Assembly: GCA_029245795.1 (NCBI GenBank)
Contig: JAQWOP010000001.1
Location: 16,301-80,300, forward strand
Origin: Hyphomicrobiales bacterium
Lineage (GTDB): Bacteria; Pseudomonadota; Alphaproteobacteria; Rhizobiales; TMED25
DNA: 64,000 nucleotides
Reading direction: 5' to 3'
Of this stretch, positions 9,239 through 60,911 are shown piece after piece. Made by a program: the position numbers and the translations under genes. The notes beneath the pieces are model-generated. The model did not search any database and was not told the origin of the DNA. It saw nothing but the letters and a program-made list of their open reading frames with translations. Position 1 is the stretch's first letter. Every line of letters begins with the position of its first letter.

Positions 9239-10351
9239 TCAAATATTTTCTTTTTTATCCCATTTTTCATATATTTGATTCATAGTTTCATCAAGTTTTT
9301 GATCATGAATTGCTTTCCTTAATTGAATCATAAGATCATCATAATATTGTAAATTTATATATGTAAGTATCATTGAACCTAGAATTTCTTTTGATTTAAA
9401 TAAATGATGTAGATATGCGCGAGAATATTTAGATGTCACTGGGCATAATGAATTTGAGTTTATAGGGCTGTGGTCTTTCGAATATTTTGAATTTCTTATA
9501 TTAATTTTTCCATTACTTGTGTATGCAAGACCATGACGTCCTGCTCTTGTTGGCATAACACAGTCAAACATATCAACTCCTCTTCTAACAGCCTCCAAGA
9601 GATCTTGTGGTGTTCCAACACCCATTAAATACCTAGGTTTATCTATAGGTAGAAGAGGAACTGTGTAATCCAATGTTTGAAGCATTAATTTCTGACCTTC
9701 TCCAACCGCTAAGCCACCTATAGCATATCCATCAAAACCTATTTTTATTGTTTCTTCAGCAGAAAATTTACGCAAATCAGGATTTACTCCACCTTGTACT
9801 ATACCAAAAAGTTTTCTTTTGTTTTTCTTGAAAAATGACTTCTTAGATAATTCAGCCCATTTCAAGGATAGACTCATAGCATTTTTTACAAGAGTTATAT
9901 CCGTATCATACTCAATACACTGATCTAAAACCATTTGAATATCAGATCCAATTGAATTTTGTATCTCCATTGATAATTTTGGTGTTAGATAAAATTTCTT
10001 ACCATCTATATGTGATTGGAAATGAACTCCGTCATTATGAATTTTTGTTAATTTAGATAAAGACATTATTTGGAAGCCACCGGAGTCGGTTAAAATTGGC
10101 TTATCCCATTTCATAAAATTATTTAAGCCGCCAAAACCATCTAAAACTTCACAACCTGGTCTTAGAAACATATGATATGTATTAGCTAGAATTATTTTAA
10201 AACCAATTTCCTCTAATTTCTCTGTGAACATAGCTTTAACAGTTCCCTGAGTCCCCACTGGCATAAAAACAGGAGTTTCAACCATACCATTTGGTAATTT
10301 CAAAATACCATTTCTGGCTTTGCCATCAGTTTTTTTAATCTCAAAGGTCAT
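9239..10351 (-). CDS. tgt: Queuine tRNA-ribosyltransferase
   Basis: 370 aa. Motifs: TPVFMPVGT, LTDSGGFQ, and the zinc-site region CxC..C...YLHHL. Confidence 0.95.
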   Translation of the reverse strand: MTFEIKKTDGKARNGILKLPNGMVETPVFMPVGTQGTVKAMFTEKLEEIGFKIILANTYHMFLRPGCEVLDGFGGLNNFMKWDKPILTDSGGFQIMSLSKLTKIHNDGVHFQSHIDGKKFYLTPKLSMEIQNSIGSDIQMVLDQCIEYDTDITLVKNAMSLSLKWAELSKKSFFKKNKRKLFGIVQGGVNPDLRKFSAEETIKIGFDGYAIGGLAVGEGQKLMLQTLDYTVPLLPIDKPRYLMGVGTPQDLLEAVRRGVDMFDCVMPTRAGRHGLAYTSNGKINIRNSKYSKDHSPINSNSLCPVTSKYSRAYLHHLFKSKEILGSMILTYINLQYYDDLMIQLRKAIHDQKLDETMNQIYEKWDKKENI

Positions 10352-21765: not shown

Positions 21766-23355
21766 CTAAATATTGATTTCTTTTGGATTAGATTTCTTTA
21801 ACCATCTCGCAACCATAAATCTAGTTAATGTAAAAGCCGTAAAGACAGAAGTAATTATTCCTATAGCAAGTGTAATGGAAAAGCCTTTAATTGGTCCAGA
21901 ACCTAATTGAAAGAGGATAATTGCCGCAATAAAAGTTGTTATATTCGCATCTAAGATTGTTGTTAAAGCTCTTTTATATCCATTATCAATTGCATTAATT
22001 GGAGATTTCTTATTGTTTAGTTCTTCTCGAATTCGCTCAAAAATCAATACATTGGCATCCACTGCCATACCAATTGTTAGTATTATACCAGCAATTCCTG
22101 GTAAAGTTAATGTTGCTTGTAGTAAAGAAAGAATAGAAACTATAAGAGAAAGATTTATTATTAATGAAATATTTGAGTAGATTCCAAATCTACCGTATGA
22201 AATAAACATATATATAAGAACAAATATTAATCCCAAAACAGCAGCTATTTTTCCAGCCTTGATTGAATCTGCGCCCAAGTCTGGACCAACGGTTCTTTCT
22301 TCTAAAATTATTAATGGGGCAGGTAAAGCACCAGCTCTTAATAAGATTGCTAAATCATTAGCCTCTTGAACACTAAAACTTCCAGAGATCATGCCTGAAC
22401 CACCTAATATTGGCTCGTTTATGATTGGGGATGATATAACTTCATTATCAAGAACGATTGCAAATGGTTTTCCAACATTATCTGAGGTTATTTTACCAAA
22501 TTTTCTTGCGCCCTGACCATCGAATCTAAAATTAACAATAGGTTGATTAGTTTGTGAATCAAATCCAGGCTGCGCATCCACAAGGTTATCACCTCCAATT
22601 ATTGATCTTTTCATTACAATATATGGTATGTCACTTTTATCCCTAGAATATAACACCATACTTGAACGATTCATATTATCTATATCCGCTAATGGATCCA
22701 TAAGATGGAATGTCATTTTTGCAGTAGTTCCCAATAATTCTTTTAATCTTTGTGGATCGTCTAAACCAGGAACTTGTATAATAATTCTTGATTTTCCCTG
22801 TCTTTGTATAGATGGTTCTTTTGTCCCAAGCTCATCTATCCTTCTTCTGACAATCTCAATTGATTGATCAACAGATCTTCGTGTCAGTGAATCTATGGCA
22901 GCATCTGTTAAATTTATTGTGTATGTATTTTCTGAAACTTCAAGGATATCTAATTCATTATTAGGCTGACCTGATGAATTAAATCCCATTTCTTGCGATA
23001 ATTCTTCTAATATTGAGAATACATCCTTAATAGATGATGCCTGAGATATGGTAATAGTGATTTCATCATTTCTTTGATCAATTGTTGAGATGTCAATCTT
23101 ATTCTTTCTTAATTCGAGCCTCAAATCATTATAAATATTATCCATTCTTTCAATAGCCAAGACAGATGCATCAACTTCAATTAGAAGATGGGATCCCCCT
23201 CTCAGATCCAGACCAAGGTTAATTTGTTTTTTAGGTAATATATTTGGTAATGAATCTATTATTTCTTGAGATAGTATATTTGGCAAAGCGAAGATAATAC
23301 CAAAAAAAGATATTATCATTATTGTAAAAGATTTGAATTTAGAAAAATATAGCAT
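21766..23355 (-). CDS. secD: Protein translocase subunit SecD
   Basis: 529 aa. LGLDLRGGSHL motif, a large periplasmic domain and a C-terminal RND-like TM bundle (GMAVDANVLIFERIREE). Confidence 0.95.
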   Translation of the reverse strand: MLYFSKFKSFTIMIISFFGIIFALPNILSQEIIDSLPNILPKKQINLGLDLRGGSHLLIEVDASVLAIERMDNIYNDLRLELRKNKIDISTIDQRNDEITITISQASSIKDVFSILEELSQEMGFNSSGQPNNELDILEVSENTYTINLTDAAIDSLTRRSVDQSIEIVRRRIDELGTKEPSIQRQGKSRIIIQVPGLDDPQRLKELLGTTAKMTFHLMDPLADIDNMNRSSMVLYSRDKSDIPYIVMKRSIIGGDNLVDAQPGFDSQTNQPIVNFRFDGQGARKFGKITSDNVGKPFAIVLDNEVISSPIINEPILGGSGMISGSFSVQEANDLAILLRAGALPAPLIILEERTVGPDLGADSIKAGKIAAVLGLIFVLIYMFISYGRFGIYSNISLIINLSLIVSILSLLQATLTLPGIAGIILTIGMAVDANVLIFERIREELNNKKSPINAIDNGYKRALTTILDANITTFIAAIILFQLGSGPIKGFSITLAIGIITSVFTAFTLTRFMVARWLKKSNPKEINI

Positions 23356-23377: not shown

Positions 23378-23677
23378 TTATTTTTTTAAATCTGATATCA
23401 TACCTCTGATAACTTTTACTTTAACATTATCAGCTATTTCAACTTCTATCTCATGATCATTAGTAACTTTAGAAATCTTACCTACTAAACCACCTTGAGT
23501 TATAATTGAATCGCCTTTTCTTAAATTATCAATCATTTCCTTATGAGCTTTAACTCTTTTTTGCTGAGGTCTGAGAATTAAAAAATATATTATAAAGAAA
23601 ATAAGAATGAAAGGTAGTAACTGGAGAAAAATATCTCCTCCACCAGGCTGTGATGCAGCATATGCTTGAGTAATCAT
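23378..23677 (-). CDS. yajC: Preprotein translocase subunit YajC
   Basis: 99 aa with a single TM. Motif FFIIYFLILRPQQKR...GD.I.T.GG..G.I. Confidence 0.92.
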   Translation of the reverse strand: MITQAYAASQPGGGDIFLQLLPFILIFFIIYFLILRPQQKRVKAHKEMIDNLRKGDSIITQGGLVGKISKVTNDHEIEVEIADNVKVKVIRGMISDLKK

Positions 23678-27875: not shown

Positions 27876-29507
27876 CTATACTAATCTACTTTTTTCTAGA
27901 GCTGCCAATATATATGAAATAAATATAGGGTGCGGGTGAAACGGTCTAGACTTTAATTCAGGATGAAATTGAACCCCTACAAACCATGGATGGCCTTCGA
28001 GTTCAATTATTTCAGGTAATTTTCCATCAGGTGAAATTCCTGAAAAGACAACCCCTACTTTCTCTAATTGTTCCTTATATTTTATGTTAACTTCCCATCT
28101 ATGTCTATGCCGTTCACTTATAATATTTTTATTGTAGATCTTGTGTGCTCTCGTACCTTTTTTAAGGATGGCTTCATAAGCACCAAGTCTCATCGTTCCG
28201 CCAAGATTTGTATTTACATCTCTTTTCTCAATTTCTTGACCTTTTTTCCATTCGGTCATTAAGTCCACCACAGGTTCACTTGTGTCGCCAAATTCTGTTG
28301 TATTCGCTTGTTTTAATTTTAATAAGTTCTGAGAAAGTTCGACGATAGCCATTTGCATACCAAAACAAATACCAAGAAGTGGAATTTTTCTCTCTCTTGC
28401 AAATCTTATAGCATTAATTTTACCTTTACTTCCCCTTTTCCCAAAACCGCCTGGAATTAAAATTGCATCTGTTTTATTAAGGTAATTTATCGGATCTGAA
28501 TTCTCTAATAATTCAGAATCTAACCATTCAACATTCACCTTAACCTTATTTATAAGACCACCGTGGTAGATTGCTTCATCAAGTGATTTATAGGCATCTT
28601 TAAGTTGAATGTACTTACCAACTATTGTAATATTTACGGTATCCTCTAAGGAACTTGAGTTCAGAGATATTTGATCCCATTTTTCAAAATTGGGTTTTGA
28701 TTTATCATCATATATATTAAATATTTTTAATACTTCTTTATCCAAACCATTATTATGCAGATGCATAGGAACATCGTATATATTTCCAACATCAACAGCT
28801 GGGATAATTCTTGAAAATGGAACATTACAAAATGAGGATATTTTTTTTCTTTCATCATCAGGAATATCTCTATCACATCTAAGAATAATAATATCTGGCT
28901 GAATACCTATTGAAGTAAGTTCTTTTACCGAATGTTGCGTTGGTTTTGTCTTGAGCTCACCTGCTGCAGCGATAAATGGTAAGAGAGTTAAATGCATAAA
29001 TAAACAACTATTAGATTCAAGTTCATTTCTTAACTGTCTAATAGCTTCAAAAAATGGAAGAGCCTCAATATCACCAACCGTACCACCTATTTCACAAAGT
29101 AAAAAATCAACATCTTCGGTTAAGTTTAATATAAAATCTTTAATTGCATCTGTAACATGAGGTATAACTTGGACTGTACCCCCAAGGTAGTCACCTTTTC
29201 TTTCTTTGGAAATTATATTTTGATATATTTTACCACTAGTAATATTGTCGAACTTAGAAGCCGAAACATCAGTGAACCTCTCGTAATGACCAAGATCAAG
29301 ATCTGTTTCAGCACCGTCATCAGTAACAAAAACCTCTCCGTGTTGAATCGGATTCATTGTACCTGGGTCTACATTAAGGTAGGGATCTAATTTTCTTAAT
29401 TTTACAGTATAACCGTGACTTTGAAGCAGTGCACCGAGAGATGCTGCAGACAAACCCTTACCTAAGGAAGAGACCACACCACCAGTAATGAAAATAAAAC
29501 GTGCCAT
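27876..29507 (-). CDS. pyrG: CTP synthase
   Basis: N-terminus [18 protein letters not shown] (ATG 29507; the track ORF starts 18 nt further upstream). Glutamine amidotransferase motifs GICFGMQ and HRHRWEVN are present. Confidence 0.95.
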
Positions 29508-38297: not shown

Positions 38298-38342
38298 TTG
38301 TAGAACATAGAAAGAACATATATAAATGTTCTTGTTTTGTGC
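38298..38342 (+). promoter_or_regulatory. lexA promoter with alphaproteobacterial SOS operator
   Basis: TTGTAG (38298-38303), a 17-nt spacer, then TATAAA (38321-38326). A perfect GAAC-atagaaa-GAAC (38303-38317) fills the spacer. An inverted imperfect copy GTTC-ttgtttt-GTGC (38328-38342) lies just downstream of the -10. AGGAG at 38351 and the ATG at 38362. Confidence 0.75.
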
Positions 38343-38361: not shown

Positions 38362-39039
38362 ATGTTAACAGAAAAACAGCATGAACTCTTAAAGTATATA
38401 CATCAAAGGGTAACTGAAAATGGAATACCTCCATCTTATGATGAAATGAAAACAGCTGTAAATCTTCATTCAAAATCAGGAATTCATAGATTAGTAAATG
38501 CCCTAGAAGAGAGAGGGTATATTAGAAGACTTCCTAATAGAGCAAGAGCTTTGGAAATATTAAAGCACCCTTTTTCAAACAACCAAGAAAATATTTATAA
38601 TGAAAAAGCAAACTACAGAACGCCAAATGTAAGAGATAAAATTAATGATTCAAAGTTTATAGAGGTCCCAATAATGGGACGTATAGCAGCAGGATCGCCA
38701 ATTTCAGCTATTCAAGAAAAAATTGATAATATCCATTTACCAAAAGATATGTTGAGTAACCATGAACATTATGCGTTAAAAATTAGAGGTGACTCCATGA
38801 TAGAATCAGGTATTTTTGATGGGGACACTGTTGTTGTTAAGAAATGTGAGACTGCAAATAATGGTGATATTATCGTTGCTCTTATTGATGACGAAGAAGC
38901 AACTCTTAAAAGATTTCGTAAGAAAGGGCAAAGTATAGCTCTTGAGCCTTCCAATCAAAACTATGAAACCAAAATCTATGCATCTGATAGAGTTAAAATT
39001 CAAGGTTGCCTTGTAAGTTTAATTAGAAACTATCATTAG
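38362..39039 (+). CDS. lexA: LexA repressor
   Basis: 225 aa. N-terminal winged-helix domain (LT.KQ.E.L..I), cleavage site GRIAAGSPI, and the Ser/Lys dyad (RGDSM ... TLKRF). Confidence 0.95.
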
Positions 39040-41832: not shown

Positions 41833-42972
41833 CTATAAATAGTTGCTAATTATTCTAGCCGCTTCTTTCTTGCTTTCCAAGTCTTTACAAAAAATAATAT
41901 TATTAACTTCATCATGCATTTTTAATTGCTTGGCTCTAACCTCTTCTTTTTCAATTATCTTTATTACTTCTTTTGCTATGAAGGAACCTTTGCATTTTAA
42001 TTGATATAGCTCAGGGATTATGTTTGATTTATGAATAATATTAGGCAAAACAATTGAGTGAATCTTAATAAAAAATCTAAATATAGAGAAAATAATGTTT
42101 GTTTTATAAATTACGACCATTGGCAACCTTGCAATAGCCAATTCTAATGTAGCACTCCCCGATGCGACTATAGCTAAGTCAGAATTTAATATATACTTAT
42201 ATTTTTCTTGTTCATCAGTTACTATTTCGTAATTTATTTTTTTTCCTTTGAGACCTTTAATAATGACTTCTTTAAATTTTTCAAAAGTAATAATCTTTAC
42301 CGATAAGTTCTCATATTTTTTTAAAAGAATATCAAGGGCTTTTACACAGGGTTCTATTAACCTATTAACCTCACTCTCTCTACTGCCCAACATTAAAATT
42401 AATTTTATAGAGTCTAAATCATTATCTTGTTGGGTATATTGTTTTACATTCTTCATAATCTTTTCAGACAGAGGATTCCCTACATAAGTACAATTTGGAC
42501 CATTTAATTTCTTATATAATTCTGGTTCAAAAGGAAATATAGAAAGAACATGATCAATATAACTTCTCATGTTACTAGCTCGCCCCTTTCTCCAGGCCCA
42601 GATTGTTGGCGAAACATAATTTATTATTGGTATATGTGAAGATATTTTTTTAACTTTTTTTGCAACTCTATGGCTAAATTCTGGACAATCAATAATTATT
42701 AATATTTCTGGATTTAATTTGACAATGGATTTAACAGTTTTATTAATAAGATTCCTTAACTTATTGATATTTAGTATTATTTCCCATGGACCAATATAAG
42801 ATATCTCATCCATAGGAAAGAAAGATTTTAAACCATTTTCAGAGAGTTTCTCTCCACCAACACCATAGATATGAATATTATTTTTTAAAGACCTCATTTC
42901 ATTTACAAGGTCAGCTCCTATTATATCTCCTGATGTCTCGCCAACAATAATTGCAACTTTTTTTAACTGCAT
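41833..42972 (-). CDS. lpxB: Lipid-A-disaccharide synthase
   Basis: 379 aa. N-terminal GE.SGD motif (IIVGETSGDIIGA), in its conserved position after lpxA-lpxI. Its stop codon abuts the gltA stop codon with 0 nt between them. Confidence 0.9.
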   Translation of the reverse strand: MQLKKVAIIVGETSGDIIGADLVNEMRSLKNNIHIYGVGGEKLSENGLKSFFPMDEISYIGPWEIILNINKLRNLINKTVKSIVKLNPEILIIIDCPEFSHRVAKKVKKISSHIPIINYVSPTIWAWRKGRASNMRSYIDHVLSIFPFEPELYKKLNGPNCTYVGNPLSEKIMKNVKQYTQQDNDLDSIKLILMLGSRESEVNRLIEPCVKALDILLKKYENLSVKIITFEKFKEVIIKGLKGKKINYEIVTDEQEKYKYILNSDLAIVASGSATLELAIARLPMVVIYKTNIIFSIFRFFIKIHSIVLPNIIHKSNIIPELYQLKCKGSFIAKEVIKIIEKEEVRAKQLKMHDEVNNIIFCKDLESKKEAARIISNYL

Positions 42973-54786: not shown

Positions 54787-55752
54787 TTATTCTTTTTTAT
54801 CAGAGACATCTACACTATCATCTTTGCCTTGATCTACTTTTTTCTTACTCACCACTCGTTTCTTTTTCTCTACAATCAATTCTTTATTATCAGGATTTTC
54901 AAGTGGAGTAATAACTTCAGGATTTGAAGCTTTTGGTTCTTCTGTATTTTTATCCTGATTTATTTCTTGAACATTCTCTTTTGGATTTTCATCAAGTATT
55001 TTAGCATCTTTCACAGAAGATGGATTAACACTTTCACCTATATCTTTATTGCTTTTTGATAGAGATTCCTCTATTCCGTCCAAAATAGTTCTTTCCACAA
55101 GTGAGCAATATAGCTCAATTGCTCGAGAAGCATCATCATTTCCTGGTATAGGGTGATCTATATTATCAGGATTTGAATTTGTATCAAGAATTGCAACTAC
55201 AGGAATACCTAATTTACTTGCCTCAAGAATTGCAATAGCTTCTTTATTAGTGTCAATTACAAACAATATATCCGGAAGACCTCCCATATCCTTAATACCG
55301 CCAATAGCTCTTTCAAGTTTATTATATTCTCTTGTGAGCTTAAGGACTTCTTTTTTTGTTAAAGCATTAATCTTCTCATCAGTAAACAGAACTTCTAGTT
55401 CTTTAAACCTATTAATTGAATTTGATACTGTTTTCCAATTAGTTAAGATGCCCGCCATCCAGGTATAATTAATATAATATTGAGCAGATCTTTTTGCGGC
55501 ATTTGCAATGTGCTCTGATGCTTGCCTTTTTGTCCCAACAAACAATACTCTCCCACCTGAAGATGCGACATTCTTTATGGCAACTAGCGCTTGGTGAAGA
55601 AGTGGAACAGTTTGTGATAAATCAATTATATGTATGCCATTTCTTTTGCCATATATAAAGGGTTCCATTTTTGGATTCCAGCGTTCTTTCTTATGTCCGA
55701 AATGAACACCAGATTCTAATAATTCTCTCATTGAAAAAATTGGTAATGACAT
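54787..55752 (-). CDS. rpsB: 30S ribosomal protein S2 with a long charged C-terminal extension
   Basis: Core motifs: GVHFGH, RWNPKM, ILFVGTK, D.LFVID. Start ATG 55752 (MSLPIF...) is preceded by AGGAG at a 7-nt spacing. The track start at 55782 has no SD. Confidence 0.95.
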
Positions 55753-55863
55753 TGTTTTTCTCCTGATTCGGTTATTCTCCACAAGGCGGTTTTTATCACC
55801 GATTCATGCCCTGTGTATGTATTTAATTAGTTGTCTTATATGACGTTATTGTATAAATATCAA
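55753..55863 (-). promoter_or_regulatory. rpsB-tsf promoter and structured 5' leader
   Basis: On the minus strand: TTGATA (55863-55858), 17 nt, TATAAG (55840-55835). An approximately 80-nt leader follows. It contains a locally GC-rich nested hairpin: outer stem CACAGGG/CCTTGTG (55815-55809 with 55786-55780) and inner stem CGGT-gataaaa-ACCG. A second ACCG copy next to the SD could pair alternatively. Confidence 0.5.
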
Positions 55864-55883
55864 GGTATTTTAAGTAAAGATTA

Positions 55884-58800
55884 TTATTCTGCATTAAAAA
55901 ATTCAACACCTGGCAATGTTTGAAGATAATTTTTCAATTCATTATCAAAATTAAAACTATCACCAATCTCTAATTTAATGTCTTTTTTCAAGTTACTATC
56001 ATAAAATATAAGGTTTACAATGTCAGATCCATCTCCAGATTTTAGCTTTGATGCAATATCGTCTAAAGTATCTATATTTGCAACTTTTATGGTGTAATGC
56101 TCGGGGTACGACTCTTCATTTAGTTCTATTTTCTGCTCTATGTGCTCCGATACTTCATCCACTAATACGTTTGAATCACCACCTCTTCCATTCTTTGGTT
56201 TAATTTCATTAATATTGCCTTGTATTACCTCATTTACCTTTAATCTTATAGCATCTGCTTGTAAATCCGCATCCACTTTAATAATTATTACATTACCTAT
56301 GAATAGAAGGTCATTATATTTATTAATAATATCAGAAAAAAACATTGTCTCAAATTCTTGGCTTACATCTGATAATTTAATAAAAGAGTACATTCGACCT
56401 GTCTTCCCTCTACGATTTATTCTGTTTTGAATAACGCCTGCCAATCTTGCTTGCTTATGCTTTTTTGTTTTGACGTTTTGAATAAAGTCAACATAAGTTG
56501 AGACTTTGTGATAATTCAGATTATTGGAATATTTTTCCATTGGGTGCCCTGATAAATAAGCCCCTGTGAATTCAAATTCACCGCTTAATTTATTAATTTC
56601 ATTCCATTCTTTGACATATGGCAATCTTAACCCTTTTGACCCTTCCTCAGTACCAGAAAATATATCAATTTGGCCTTCTAAGTTCTTTTTTCGAATTCTA
56701 TTAGACTCCATAAGCAAAAGATCCACATTATTAAATAAAAGTGCTCTATTAGATTCAATTTCATCAAAAGCACCTGCCATAATAAGACCCTCAAAAGCTC
56801 GTTTATTTACGTAATGAACATCAATCCTATTGATAAAGTCATTAACACTTGTGAAAACTCCATTCTTTTCTCTTTCAATAGAAATATTAACAACAGCTTG
56901 AGATCCAACGTTCTTAATTGAAGCTAGAGAGAACCTAATTGCCTGACCTTCAATTTTAAAATCATGGCTTGAACTATTTATTGATGGAGGTAATAATTCA
57001 ATCTTCATTCTTTTTATTTCCGAAATAATATTTGATATTTTATCAATATTTCCAACATCTAATGTTAAAAGTGCCGACATAAAAGCAAGTGGATGATTTG
57101 CTTTCAAATACCCAGTTTGGAAAGCAATTAAGGCGTATGCAGCAGAATGAGCTTTATTAAAGCCATAACCTGCAAATTTATTAACTAAATCAAATATAAA
57201 TTCTGCTTTAGCTCTATCAACTCCATTTAATTTAGCGCCTGAAATAAAATTATCTCTTTGAGCATCCATTTCAGATTTGATTTTCTTTCCCATAGCTCTT
57301 CTTAATAAATCTGCTTCCCCCAAACTATAATTAGCAAGCTTTTGGGCAATTTGTATTACCTGTTCTTGATAAATGATAACACCATAAGTATCTGCAATTA
57401 TGGGATTAATTAATTCATGCAATTCCTCAACTGCAACCTCCGAGTTCTTAGCAGAAAGATATTGAGGTATGTTTTCCATTGGGCCAGGTCTAAATAATGC
57501 AATCAATGCAATTAAATCTTCAAAATTATTTGGCTTTGCTTTTATCAACAAATCTTTCATTCCAGAACTTTCAAATTGAAAAACTCCTGATGTTGAGCCA
57601 TCCCTGAATAACTTTAATGTACTCTCATCATCAAGCTGAATAGTGGAAATATCAATAGTAACACCATTATTTTCCATTTGCTTACAACACTCACTAATAA
57701 CAGAAAGTGTTTTTAAACCTAATATATCAAATTTAACAAGACCCGCCTGCTCTACCCACTTCATATTGAATTGCGTTACCAGTGAATTTGTCTTTTGATC
57801 CATATATAATGGAACGTATTCTTCTAAATCACCCTCCGAGATAACAACACCTGCTGCATGAGTTGAAGCGTGTCTATACAAACCCTCTAGTGATAGAGAA
57901 TATTCAAGCAAACGATCAACTATTTCATCAGTTTCTTTTAAAGATTTAATCTCTTTTACTTCCGAAATAGCTTCGGATAACGTCATTGGATTAGCAGGGT
58001 TATTTGGTATTAATCTACAAATATTGTCAACTTGGCTATAAGGTAATTCCATGACTCGTCCAACATCTCTAATAACTGCTCTAGCTTGCAACTTTCCGAA
58101 TGTTATTATTTGGGCAACTCTTTTCTTTCCATACGTTTCCTTAATATAGTTAATAACCTCCTCTCTCCTTATTGGACAAAAATCAATATCAAAATCTGGC
58201 ATAGAAACACGGTGAGGATTTAGAAATCTCTCAAAAACTAAATTAAATTTTATTGGATCAAGATCTGTTATCCCAAGTGACCAAGCAACAAGTGACCCGG
58301 CTCCAGATCCTCTGCCAGGACCAACTGGAATATCGTTTTTCTTAGACCAATTGATTATATCAGCAACTATAAGAAAATATCCTGCATAATCCATATCAAT
58401 AATTATTGATAATTCATCCTTAAGTCTATTATTATATTCGGTAGTATTAGAGTTTTCGGCAGTACCAAACTTATTAATTCTCTCCTTAAAACCATTATTT
58501 GTCATCTCAGTTAATAAATCATTTTCGTTTAAGGAAGTCTTATCATCTTTTTCTTTAACAATATATTTTGGTAATATTGGAGCAAGAGTGACTGGCCTAT
58601 AAAGACATTTCTTCGCAATTAATACAGTGTTCTCAATGGCTTCTGGAATATCCCTATAAAGCTCTTTCATATTTTTTTGATTTTTAAAGAAACATTCTGA
58701 AGATATCTTTTTTCGATTAGGATTAGATAGAACGTCGGAAGATGGGATGCATTGAAGTATATCATTTGCCTCATGGTCATCTTTTTTTGCAAAGAAAATA

Positions 58801-59408
58801 TCATTAGTGGCAACTATTGGTAAATTCATATCATACGCTATATCAATTAAGTTATTTTCTATAGATGTATCATTTTGATCATACCGCTGTAATTCAATAA
58901 ATAACCTATCTTTGAAAGACTCATTTATCGTTTGCAATTGTCTTCTGGCGAGGTCTTTGTTATTTAGTCTTAATGATTGATTGATTAATCCTTTTGATCC
59001 CCCAGTAAGAAAAAAAAGACCTTGGTTATTTTCAAAGAGTTCATCTAACGTTACAAATGGAAGGAAAGAATTTTTTTTCTGGTAAGCCGAACTTGAGAGT
59101 TTCAATAGATTTTTATATCCATCTATAGAATTAGATAGCAAACAAATATTTGAGTAATTTGCTAATTTATCACCAATATTTTGATCCTTATCATATATAT
59201 TTAATGTTGTTCCAATTATGGGTTGTATTCCATTGGCAGAAAGTTTCTCCGAAAACTCAAGAGCTCCAAAAAGGTTATTATCTGTAAGCCCAATTGCAGG
59301 CATTTTATTCTCAAGACATAGATCCTTAATTTTATCAATATGTAAGGATGACTCCAACAGAGAATACGAAGAACGTACACGTAAATGAATATAATCTAAG
59401 TCAGACAT
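55884..59408 (-). CDS. dnaE: DNA polymerase III subunit alpha
   Basis: 1174 aa. N-terminal PHP domain (IHLRVRSSYSLLES), polymerase core (PDFDIDF, GYGFNKAHSAAYA) and a C-terminal OB fold. Confidence 0.97.
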   Translation of the reverse strand: MSDLDYIHLRVRSSYSLLESSLHIDKIKDLCLENKMPAIGLTDNNLFGALEFSEKLSANGIQPIIGTTLNIYDKDQNIGDKLANYSNICLLSNSIDGYKNLLKLSSSAYQKKNSFLPFVTLDELFENNQGLFFLTGGSKGLINQSLRLNNKDLARRQLQTINESFKDRLFIELQRYDQNDTSIENNLIDIAYDMNLPIVATNDIFFAKKDDHEANDILQCIPSSDVLSNPNRKKISSECFFKNQKNMKELYRDIPEAIENTVLIAKKCLYRPVTLAPILPKYIVKEKDDKTSLNENDLLTEMTNNGFKERINKFGTAENSNTTEYNNRLKDELSIIIDMDYAGYFLIVADIINWSKKNDIPVGPGRGSGAGSLVAWSLGITDLDPIKFNLVFERFLNPHRVSMPDFDIDFCPIRREEVINYIKETYGKKRVAQIITFGKLQARAVIRDVGRVMELPYSQVDNICRLIPNNPANPMTLSEAISEVKEIKSLKETDEIVDRLLEYSLSLEGLYRHASTHAAGVVISEGDLEEYVPLYMDQKTNSLVTQFNMKWVEQAGLVKFDILGLKTLSVISECCKQMENNGVTIDISTIQLDDESTLKLFRDGSTSGVFQFESSGMKDLLIKAKPNNFEDLIALIALFRPGPMENIPQYLSAKNSEVAVEELHELINPIIADTYGVIIYQEQVIQIAQKLANYSLGEADLLRRAMGKKIKSEMDAQRDNFISGAKLNGVDRAKAEFIFDLVNKFAGYGFNKAHSAAYALIAFQTGYLKANHPLAFMSALLTLDVGNIDKISNIISEIKRMKIELLPPSINSSSHDFKIEGQAIRFSLASIKNVGSQAVVNISIEREKNGVFTSVNDFINRIDVHYVNKRAFEGLIMAGAFDEIESNRALLFNNVDLLLMESNRIRKKNLEGQIDIFSGTEEGSKGLRLPYVKEWNEINKLSGEFEFTGAYLSGHPMEKYSNNLNYHKVSTYVDFIQNVKTKKHKQARLAGVIQNRINRRGKTGRMYSFIKLSDVSQEFETMFFSDIINKYNDLLFIGNVIIIKVDADLQADAIRLKVNEVIQGNINEIKPKNGRGGDSNVLVDEVSEHIEQKIELNEESYPEHYTIKVANIDTLDDIASKLKSGDGSDIVNLIFYDSNLKKDIKLEIGDSFNFDNELKNYLQTLPGVEFFNAE

Positions 59409-59517
59409 GATAAATACCCTTGATAAATATCTATTGTAATAAAAAACAAATAGAAGTCATTTGAATATTGGTAACTTTTAAGTATTGTTGTGATATTGTG
59501 GATAAGGAGAATAATTA

Positions 59518-59622
59518 TTATATAATTGCAACTAACCTAAATAGCATAAAAGAGAAAGCAACAATAGATATTAAGCTAGCTAAATCTTCCCAATTATGTG
59601 TAATTTTATTTAATAAAAACAT
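59518..59622 (-). CDS. Unannotated 34-aa hydrophobic peptide downstream of a triple LexA half-site array (candidate SOS-induced small membrane protein)
   Basis: ATG 59622-59620, TAA 59520-59518, GAGG at 59632-59629 with a 6-nt spacer. Peptide MFLLNKITHNWEDLASLISIVAFSFMLFRLVAII: a polar N-terminus plus one 21-residue hydrophobic helix. A promoter and SOS boxes lie immediately upstream. It is below the track size cutoff. Confidence 0.55.
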   Translation of the reverse strand: MFLLNKITHNWEDLASLISIVAFSFMLFRLVAII

Positions 59623-59636
59623 TTTTTACCTCTTTT

Positions 59637-59671
59637 GTTCTTACTATGTTCTATTTATGTTCTGATGTCAA
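59637..59671 (-). promoter_or_regulatory. sigma70-like promoter overlapped by two tandem-overlapping alphaproteobacterial SOS boxes
   Basis: The minus strand reads TTGACA-tca-GAAC-ataaata-GAAC-atagtaa-GAAC. The -35 is at 59671-59666 and a -10 candidate CATAGT at 59648-59643 (17-nt spacer). GAAC tetramers sit at 59662-59659, 59651-59648 and 59640-59637, each separated by exactly 7 nt. Confidence 0.7.
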
Positions 59672-59683
59672 ATTTTTTTTTAA

Positions 59684-59705
59684 AATCTATTTCTATAAAT
59701 AGATT
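59684..59705. repeat. Perfect 9-bp inverted repeat between the SOS promoter and metC
   Basis: AATCTATTT-ctat-AAATAGATT. It lies 13 nt upstream of the minus-strand -35 and 37 nt upstream of the metC ATG. The stem is AT-only. Confidence 0.6.
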
Positions 59706-59741
59706 GTCGCATTTATTAAGATGTGTAATTAATAGTATTAA

Positions 59742-60911
59742 ATGATAGATAAAAAATATAAAGAAGATACTTTACTTGCGCATGGAGGAAGAAAACCGGA
59801 TGAACATTTCGGTTTTGTTAATACACCTGTATATCGAGGATCCACAATCTTATCAAATTCATCTAAAGAATTTAGAGAGAGAAAATCTCGTTATACATAC
59901 GGAAGTAAATCTAACCCAAATACCGAAGGTTTAGAAGATTGTATAAAAAAACTTGAGGGTGCTGAAGGTTGTAAGATAACTAGCTCCGGAAGAACTGCTA
60001 TATTATTATCACTACTCAGCGTTTTATCTACTGGTGATCATTTAATTTTAGCGGATAACGTATATGATCCCACCAAACAAATTTCAAATAATTTTCTAAC
60101 AAGTATGGGTATTAATGTTTCCTATTTTGACTCGAAAGATCTGACTGAGCTTACAAATATGATTACTTCCAAAACAAAGGCAATATTTTTTGAATCACCC
60201 GGATCAATTACTTTTGAAGTTATAGATATTGAAGCCCTTGTGAAAATAGCTAGAAAAAAAAATATTTATACGATTATTGATAATACATGGGGAACCCCTC
60301 TTTACTTTAAACCTTTTGATTATGGTATTGATATTTCTATTCATGCAGGTACTAAATATATAGTAGGACACTCCGATACATTCATTGGTGCCGTGACTTA
60401 TAATAATAAAGCTAAAAATTTGATCAATGAAACATATGACCTACTTAGATTAAGCAGTAATGCTGATGATGCCTATATGGCAAGCCGAGGGCTTCGTAGT
60501 ATGAAAGTTCGAATGGAGAAACAGTTTGAAAATACACTTAGTATTTGCGAAGCTTTATACAAAAACAACTTAGTCAAAGAGATTTTATATCCACCATTCA
60601 AAAATAGTAAAGATCATGAATTATGGAAAAAATACTTCCTTAACGGCGGTGCCAGCCTTATGACCATTATCATCAATAACAATGGCGACCTTAAGTCACT
60701 GGATAATTTTATAGATGGACTTTGTTTATTTGGAATTGGTGCATCTTGGGGTGGCTATGAAAGCCTTGCTATACCTGTCTTTCCTAGTCGTAAGAAAAAT
60801 AATAAATGGGATAAACACATAAATTCAATGGTTAGACTTCATATCGGACTAGAAGACAAAAATGACTTGATCGAAGACCTTAATAACTCCCTAGCTAATA
60901 TGCATCTTTAA
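59742..60911 (+). CDS. metC: Cystathionine beta-lyase (Cys/Met-metabolism PLP enzyme family)
   Basis: 389 aa. N-terminus TLLAHGGR, PLP-lysine context HAGTKYIVGHSD and C-terminal VRLHIGLED. The beta-lyase versus gamma-synthase assignment rests on length and N-terminus only. Confidence 0.8.
   Translation: MIDKKYKEDTLLAHGGRKPDEHFGFVNTPVYRGSTILSNSSKEFRERKSRYTYGSKSNPNTEGLEDCIKKLEGAEGCKITSSGRTAILLSLLSVLSTGDHLILADNVYDPTKQISNNFLTSMGINVSYFDSKDLTELTNMITSKTKAIFFESPGSITFEVIDIEALVKIARKKNIYTIIDNTWGTPLYFKPFDYGIDISIHAGTKYIVGHSDTFIGAVTYNNKAKNLINETYDLLRLSSNADDAYMASRGLRSMKVRMEKQFENTLSICEALYKNNLVKEILYPPFKNSKDHELWKKYFLNGGASLMTIIINNNGDLKSLDNFIDGLCLFGIGASWGGYESLAIPVFPSRKKNNKWDKHINSMVRLHIGLEDKNDLIEDLNNSLANMHL

Follow-up and report, generated by a model that had tools for sequence, protein, structure and literature searches.

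The stretch of DNA considered here (the window) comprises 64,000 nucleotides (nt) of contig JAQWOP010000001.1 of a Hyphomicrobiales bacterium (assembly GCA_029245795.1), and its subject is a small expression unit on the minus strand of the 333-nt spacer between dnaE and a metC-like gene. This unit consists of a promoter overlaid by LexA-type boxes and a 34-codon gene for a predicted membrane peptide, with dnaE following on the same strand. Read by analogy of layout, it is the positional equivalent of the sidA-dnaE unit of Caulobacter. An initial annotation of the same DNA had already proposed a LexA-controlled gene at this position, and on re-reading positions 59300-59900 its coordinates for every minus-strand element were found to match. 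The elements are given below in minus-strand order, conservation referring to the diverged alleles described further on.

59680-59672, minus strand: A-tract, directly 5' of the -35 hexamer in the minus-strand reading.
59671-59666, minus strand: -35 hexamer TTGACA, from the promoter scan, invariant in all diverged alleles.
59648-59643, minus strand: -10 hexamer CATAGT, 17 nt after the -35 hexamer, CATATT in sister lineages.
59662-59659, 59651-59648 and 59640-59637, minus strand: three GAAC half-sites, each 7 nt apart.
59648-59662, minus strand: distal LexA-type box GAACATAAATAGAAC, within the promoter spacer, invariant in all alleles.
59637-59651, minus strand: proximal LexA-type box GAACATAGTAAGAAC, 14 nt from the ATG and lying over the -10 hexamer and predicted start site.
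59632-59629, minus strand: Shine-Dalgarno element GAGG, 6 nt 5' of the ATG at 59622.
59622-59518, minus strand: 34-codon peptide gene, under coding selection, ending in TAA (59520-59518) with a second TAA behind it (59517-59515).

The two boxes overlap, the first half-site of the proximal box being common to both, and between them they cover the promoter spacer, the -10 hexamer and the predicted start site, in the classic manner of a repressor. Within the proximal box the half-sites are invariant across alleles, with two spacer positions variable in the spacer alignment. An AAGG/AGGA element is likewise retained in the sister lineages, despite a 2-nt indel between this element and the ATG. In the promoter scan, the SOS promoter is the best match to a sigma-70 promoter in the region (10/12). 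Promoter-like sites are not enriched there, 6 being found against 7.3 expected in shuffles, and the match alone therefore says little. Metagenome contigs that are otherwise identical (L004-L011 compared) differ in the length of the A-tract (59672-59680), from A9 to A11, which may be homopolymer sequencing noise or real variation in a tract resembling an UP element.

The ATG at 59622 is the only possible start of the peptide gene, because the second in-frame codon upstream is a stop, and the open reading frame (ORF) translates to MFLLNKITHNWEDLASLISIVAFSFMLFRLVAII. An ORF of such length is unremarkable by itself, since ATG-initiated ORFs of at least 34 amino acids arise in 20% of spacer shuffles. 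With ORF and promoter alone lying near chance level, the significance of the locus rests on comparative evidence. The exact peptide has already been called as a gene, a 34-amino-acid hypothetical protein, on 14 public metagenome contigs, on which the order is always ParA/NUBPL, a GBBH-like gene, the divergent metC-like gene, the peptide and dnaE. The gene had been described as hidden; it does sit in what looks like an annotated spacer, but gene callers list it in public metagenomes.

Diverged alleles are provided by the metagenome-assembled genome (MAG) LRMED-257 (L001, a 1.42-Mb contig with a DnaE N-terminus 81% identical) and by the metagenome loci L017 and L018. Further diverged copies belong to a third lineage (L012-L014), and a fifth variant (P0002) is represented by a protein record only. 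The comparison of DNA took in four alleles from three to four lineages. All four retain start codon (ATG), frame, length and double TAA with zero indels, whereas the non-coding flanks carry at least 4 indels. The triple GAAC array is conserved in these diverged alleles along with the ATG and the frame, so that the alignment of related spacers suggested by the initial annotation comes out in favour of the gene. Of 23 variable sites within the ORF, 17 fall at codon position 3 (binomial P = 8e-5), and the first-position changes number four, two of which are synonymous changes of Leu. The Nei-Gojobori omega is 0.02-0.04, at a synonymous divergence (dS) of 0.7-2.1 between lineages, which is close to saturation, and of 0.22 between the two closest alleles. 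In neutral simulations with 16 substitutions, 0 of 200,000 runs retained an intact ORF with at most 3 amino-acid changes. Judged by this pattern of substitution, the 34-codon ORF is a genuine protein-coding gene under strong purifying selection.

A 65-amino-acid ORF on the opposite strand (59468-59665, plus strand) was also considered, being open in all alleles and having wobble positions in common with the peptide ORF. Its start is not conserved, a 2-nt indel alters its frame in the promoter region, and its omega of 0.07-0.2 is 2-5 times higher than that of the peptide ORF. It was set aside as a shadow ORF.

The predicted product has a polar N-terminus of 15 residues, followed by a hydrophobic segment (residues 16-34, SLISIVAFSFMLFRLVAII) with a mean Kyte-Doolittle hydropathy of 2.36 that reaches the C-terminus. 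AlphaFold2 models a single continuous helix over residues 2-33 with a predicted local distance difference test (pLDDT) score of 92.5. The product is thereby predicted to be a single-helix membrane peptide with a C-terminal transmembrane segment. Its sequence matches nothing in Pfam and NCBIfam, even at E = 10. A word-indexed search with a padded query returned nothing beyond near-identical variants, and a metagenome scan with the peptide alignment gave 3 loci, again carrying near-identical variants only. All protein searches together yielded four near-identical variants and nothing beyond. As far as these collections reach, the peptide is a lineage-restricted sequence orphan, without detectable homologues outside its own small lineage.

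Evidence on the regulator is available within the window, which contains lexA together with its operator.

38303-38331, plus strand: lexA operator GAAC-N7-GAAC-N10-GTTC, in the lexA promoter, the third half-site inverted.
38362-39039, plus strand: lexA, encoding the repressor (TIGR00498, 201.8 bits, cutoff 110.95).

The motif GAAC-N7-GAAC occurs 4 times in the 64-kb window against 0.79 expected, and the triple GAAC array once against 0.07 expected. In its extended form, GAACATA-N4-GAACA, the motif is found without mismatch only at the peptide locus (twice) and upstream of lexA. At 14 of its 15 positions the proximal box GAACATAGTAAGAAC agrees with GAACATAGAAAGAAC, the lexA operator. Both the extended-motif search and this box identity uphold the internal calibration of the initial annotation, namely that the motif at the peptide gene also precedes lexA. 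A further exact GAAC-N7-GAAC (28326-28340, minus strand) and two near-matches to the extended box (10226-10241 and 42535-42550, both plus strand) lie inside long ORFs and were taken as chance occurrences.

The lexA operator is part of a block of about 40 nt, CTTGTAGAACATAGAAAGAACATGTATAAATGTTCTTG, which scarcely changes across sister lineages of 80-84% LexA identity (L019-L024), and it is the sole GAAC-N7-GAAC in each of these sister lexA loci (7-21 kb each). In front of the peptide gene, neither the -35 hexamer nor any of the three half-sites varies, in a neighbourhood where synonymous sites differ by about 60% (raw). Moreover, the SOS box of Caulobacter and other alphaproteobacteria is GTTCN7GTTC (PMC9578287, Table 1), which matches the GAAC-N7-GAAC of this locus. 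LexA control of the peptide promoter is strongly indicated, because the motif matches the lexA operator and the published SOS box, the half-sites are conserved and the geometry is that of a repressor. The GAAC repeats might instead serve another regulator or be a chance repeat, with the peptide gene expressed constitutively. In favour of such a view it can be said that the spacer has a low-complexity, AT-rich sequence (GC 21.9%, against 31.4% for the window), and that LexA binding itself is deduced from sequence. We regard it as highly improbable, considering that the extended motif recurs in the lexA promoter and nowhere else between genes in 64 kb, that both sites are invariant footprints across lineages and that the motif is a documented SOS box of alphaproteobacteria.

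The genes to either side of the spacer, and the elements between the peptide stop and dnaE, are as follows.

55884-59408, minus strand: replicative dnaE, DNA polymerase III alpha (NF004226, 1334 bits, cutoff 1002).
59742-60911, divergent: Cys/Met pyridoxal-phosphate enzyme, probably cystathionine beta-lyase, flanking the spacer.
59433-59460, minus strand: putative constitutive dnaE promoter ATGACT-16-TACAAT (9/12 match), both hexamers conserved in all alleles.
59497-59505, minus strand: perfect DnaA-box 9-mer TTATCCACA, in a conserved block lying 3' of the peptide stop and 5' of the putative dnaE promoter.

Profile scores confirm the flanking genes named in the initial annotation (dnaE, metC-like and lexA). 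An assignment of this dnaE to the error-prone DnaE2/ImuC type of the imuA-imuB-dnaE2 cassette was rejected, the score of 544 bits against NF004225 falling below the cutoff of 939. The 333-nt spacer remains, as had been claimed, the largest non-coding gap in the window, the only bigger ORF-free stretch containing a YajC-like gene. This YajC-like ORF (99 amino acids, 23378-23677, minus strand) adjoins a 529-amino-acid SecD-like membrane protein (21766-23355). The DnaA box TTATCCACA is the sole copy in the window, where 0.93 would be expected by chance, and is invariant in all alleles. It is tentatively read as a possible DnaA input to dnaE transcription.

The peptide stop lies 109 nt from dnaE on the same strand. 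A scan of the spacer found no terminator-like site between the two, for which reason the SOS transcript probably reads through into dnaE. Read-through had been put forward earlier as an alternative to a peptide gene. It does appear likely, but it is not an alternative, given that dnaE is the second gene of the sidA unit in Caulobacter.

A small hydrophobic peptide behind LexA boxes also recalls the SOS-induced type I toxins, which depolarise the membrane and lead to dormancy, and which are held in check by an antisense RNA. Those of Escherichia coli, TisB/IstR-1 and DinQ/AgrB, are LexA-controlled hydrophobic inner-membrane peptides of 27-29 amino acids, and the primary transcripts of tisB and dinQ are long, structured and translationally inert. 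At the present locus an antisense RNA across the ORF could start on the opposite strand, where there is a promoter-like sequence (TGGATA-16-TATAAT, 59499-59526, 10/12). This site is weakened in the sister lineages (spacer 1 nt shorter, -10 hexamer TATGAT), the ORF's final codons and the DnaA-box block already account for its bases, and such sites are, as noted, no commoner here than in shuffles. The predicted leader is only about 14 nt long with an exposed GAGG, and with a fold z-score of +1.73 the RNA spanning 59636-59405 is less structured than 198 of 200 shuffles. Rfam gave no match in support of a toxin system. In the spacer its sole match was SpR08, a sub-threshold chance match (21 bits against a gathering score of 80) on account of which a known RNA element was rejected, and in the whole window it found one tRNA-Lys and nothing else. 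Finally, the position before dnaE is that of sidA and not that of a toxin locus. A type I toxin of the TisB/DinQ kind is accordingly considered quite improbable: unlike those systems, the locus has no structured inactive leader and no supported antisense partner, and its context is a housekeeping replication gene. The SOS-induced small membrane peptide of the initial annotation, which had been offered as either SidA-like or TisB/DinQ-like, is thus supported in the first form by operator, selection and dnaE layout and disfavoured in the second.

The sidA gene of Caulobacter, which we take to be CC1927, has a coding sequence of only 123 bp. CC1926 is the replicative dnaE (PMC1839093), and in a list of SOS genes dnaE (CCNA_02003) comes next after sidA (CCNA_02004) (PMC12700426, supplements). 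After 40 min of mitomycin C, dnaE shows a log2 fold change of 1.18, and in a lexA sidA double deletion one of 1.45; that of sidA induction is 3.42 (PMC12700426). The promoter of CCNA_02004 carries the LexA boxes GTTCACAAGATGTTC and TTTCTTGTTTTGTTC, which lie 49 and 15 bp away from the coding sequence, a LexA chromatin immunoprecipitation peak of 2008 reads per million (rpm), which is among the highest, and sigma-70 occupancy (PMC12700426). Its transcription unit measures 3557 bp (PMC12700426) and must be sidA plus dnaE, because sidA itself is so short. SidA is an inner-membrane protein of 29 amino acids which blocks division via FtsW (PMC4211646; PMC9578287).

A comparable arrangement is present in Hyphobacterium sp. 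CCMP332 (CP058669.1, L025 2302-2447). Its lolD-dnaE gap contains the tandem boxes GAACAAAACGTGAAA and GAACATAACCAGAAC, of the type GAAC-N7-GAA(C/A), followed by GGAG, a 30-amino-acid ORF MRRLLADATSAAAILGFGWMILMWTSILLA, dnaE 53 nt later and then rpsB. The box GAACAAAACGTGAAA is identical at 13 of 15 positions to the reverse complement of box 2 of Caulobacter sidA. The 30-amino-acid ORF, annotated as 'hypothetical protein', has a hydrophobic segment reaching the C-terminus, as in the window peptide, and is probably an unrecognised sidA-like gene. Both in the lineage of the window (54787-59408) and in Hyphobacterium (L025 2501-6404), dnaE and rpsB are neighbours.

These comparisons bear on a second possibility, that the boxes mainly serve to raise dnaE after damage, the peptide being unrelated to division or acting as a leader which tunes dnaE by translation. 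The missing terminator would suit this, as would the SOS induction of the replicative dnaE in Caulobacter, and dnaE is LexA-regulated in Bacillus subtilis too. The peptide also stays with dnaE where the upstream neighbour varies (metC here, lolD in Hyphobacterium). An omega of 0.02-0.04, on the other hand, implies that the product itself is selected and not the mere act of translation, and a 109-nt spacer with a promoter-like element makes translational coupling unlikely. In the sole organism studied with this layout, furthermore, the peptide acts as the principal inhibitor of division in the SOS response (PMC4211646). We consider this dnaE-centred explanation unlikely.

The explanation preferred, with moderate confidence, is that the locus is a LexA-repressed SOS unit of the sidA-dnaE type, whose peptide is most likely a diverged, damage-induced division brake. 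We infer LexA binding, damage induction, co-transcription with dnaE and membrane insertion, in the following manner. In an undamaged cell, LexA would occupy the two overlapping GAAC-N7-GAAC boxes and keep the promoter, which has a strong -35, shut. Upon DNA damage LexA would cleave itself and the promoter would fire, giving an mRNA with an unstructured leader of some 14 nt and an exposed Shine-Dalgarno element, from which the 34-amino-acid peptide would be made and then inserted in the inner membrane as one helix. Meeting no terminator, the transcript would extend into the replicative dnaE and add to the output of the gene's own downstream promoter. The peptide would then most likely delay cytokinesis until repair is complete by binding the late divisome, the FtsW/FtsI/FtsN complex being the presumed target. 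A division block is proposed because the layout is the same as that of Caulobacter sidA-dnaE, that is to say by positional equivalence alone.

Several observations weigh against this proposal of a sidA-dnaE type unit. Among 1.84 billion representative proteins, phmmer retrieves nothing but the cluster to which the peptide itself belongs. Between the peptide and its 30-amino-acid counterpart in Hyphobacterium, BLASTP finds no match and hhalign gives a probability of 4.5%. The upstream regions of dnaE in L015, L026, L027 (Anderseniella) and L028 are without boxes or micro-ORF; because these four other alphaproteobacterial loci lack the layout, it is not universal and may have arisen independently. 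Lastly, the conserved 109-nt spacer carries what appears to be a promoter of dnaE's own, so the contribution of read-through may be small. Loci L015 and L027, which are Rhizobiales-like, have the gene order lolE, lolD, a histone-deacetylase-family gene and dnaE, without the peptide.

With regard to the host, the genome had been taken for one of the SAR11 type. This assignment does not stand, as among named matches LexA is closest to that of a 'Rhodobiaceae bacterium' MAG (84%) and then to those of Rhizobiales (about 60%). The nearest genome, Rhizobiales-LRMED-257 (L001), is a single contig of 1.42 Mb and the only close genome in the genome-contig scan. The host lineage is AT-rich (31% GC), resembles Rhizobiales and, because its closest genome is a contig of this size, appears streamlined. 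A search with the DnaE N-terminus placed the nearest outside relatives at 44% identity; it was left unused as an argument for isolation, as the fragments listed were at most 504 amino acids long and even the full-length DnaE of the window itself was missing from them.

Division inhibitors of the SOS response are notorious for their lack of sequence conservation, and SidA has been treated as a speciality of Caulobacter. The same operon logic is now seen in a distant marine lineage, where the peptide looks unrelated, and a second time in Hyphobacterium. This suggests that adjacency to dnaE can reveal the checkpoint where sequence gives no signal, and that a division brake combined with a mild SOS induction of the replicative polymerase may represent a conserved arrangement. 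A wider generalisation, that LexA boxes, a transmembrane micro-ORF of about 30 amino acids and the replicative dnaE form an old, recurrent SOS module of alphaproteobacteria in which the peptide evolves or is replaced beyond the reach of sequence searches, is possible though short of probable, and is advanced tentatively. If true, the locus would be the first candidate for a DNA-damage division checkpoint in an AT-rich, apparently streamlined marine lineage resembling Rhizobiales, and dnaE synteny would offer a general handle for analogues of SidA outside Caulobacterales. The annotation of the 333-nt "spacer" is in any case corrected, in that it contains a selected gene, and a candidate LexA operator is gained for an uncultured lineage.

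The kind of system is already known, an SOS-induced micro-membrane division inhibitor in one unit with dnaE having been described in Caulobacter, and the novelty of the damage-inducible unit is to that extent lower than the initial annotation had assumed. What is new is a sequence-orphan example in an uncultured, AT-rich marine lineage, a second, unstudied example in Hyphobacterium, and the suggestion that genes of this sort are to be identified by their linkage to dnaE and not by sequence. Among division inhibitors at large, SulA, YneA, DivS and SosA are likewise LexA-repressed and block division after DNA damage, YneA and SosA also being single-pass membrane proteins. These differ from the present peptide in being unrelated in sequence, larger and unlinked to dnaE, and SulA is cytoplasmic and targets FtsZ. 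Compared with Hyphobacterium, the peptides do not align, the upstream gene there is lolD in place of the divergent metC-like gene, and dnaE begins after 53 nt there and after 109 nt here.

In relation to Caulobacter sidA-dnaE, the boxes of the window differ by overlapping at one common half-site. The 109 nt and apparent internal dnaE promoter contrast with a Caulobacter unit whose length implies almost no gap, and the host is a 31% GC lineage resembling Rhizobiales, not a member of Caulobacterales. The likeness to SidA is one of position and architecture, the peptide showing no detectable similarity to any protein in the searched collections. Both units have two boxes of the GTTC-N7-GTTC type, the distance of the proximal one being 14 nt to the ATG in the window and 15 bp to the coding sequence in Caulobacter, and both have a sigma-70 promoter. 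In each, a single-pass inner-membrane peptide of about 30 amino acids (here predicted) comes first and the replicative dnaE follows on the same strand, in one transcription unit in Caulobacter and, in the window, probably in a common transcript.

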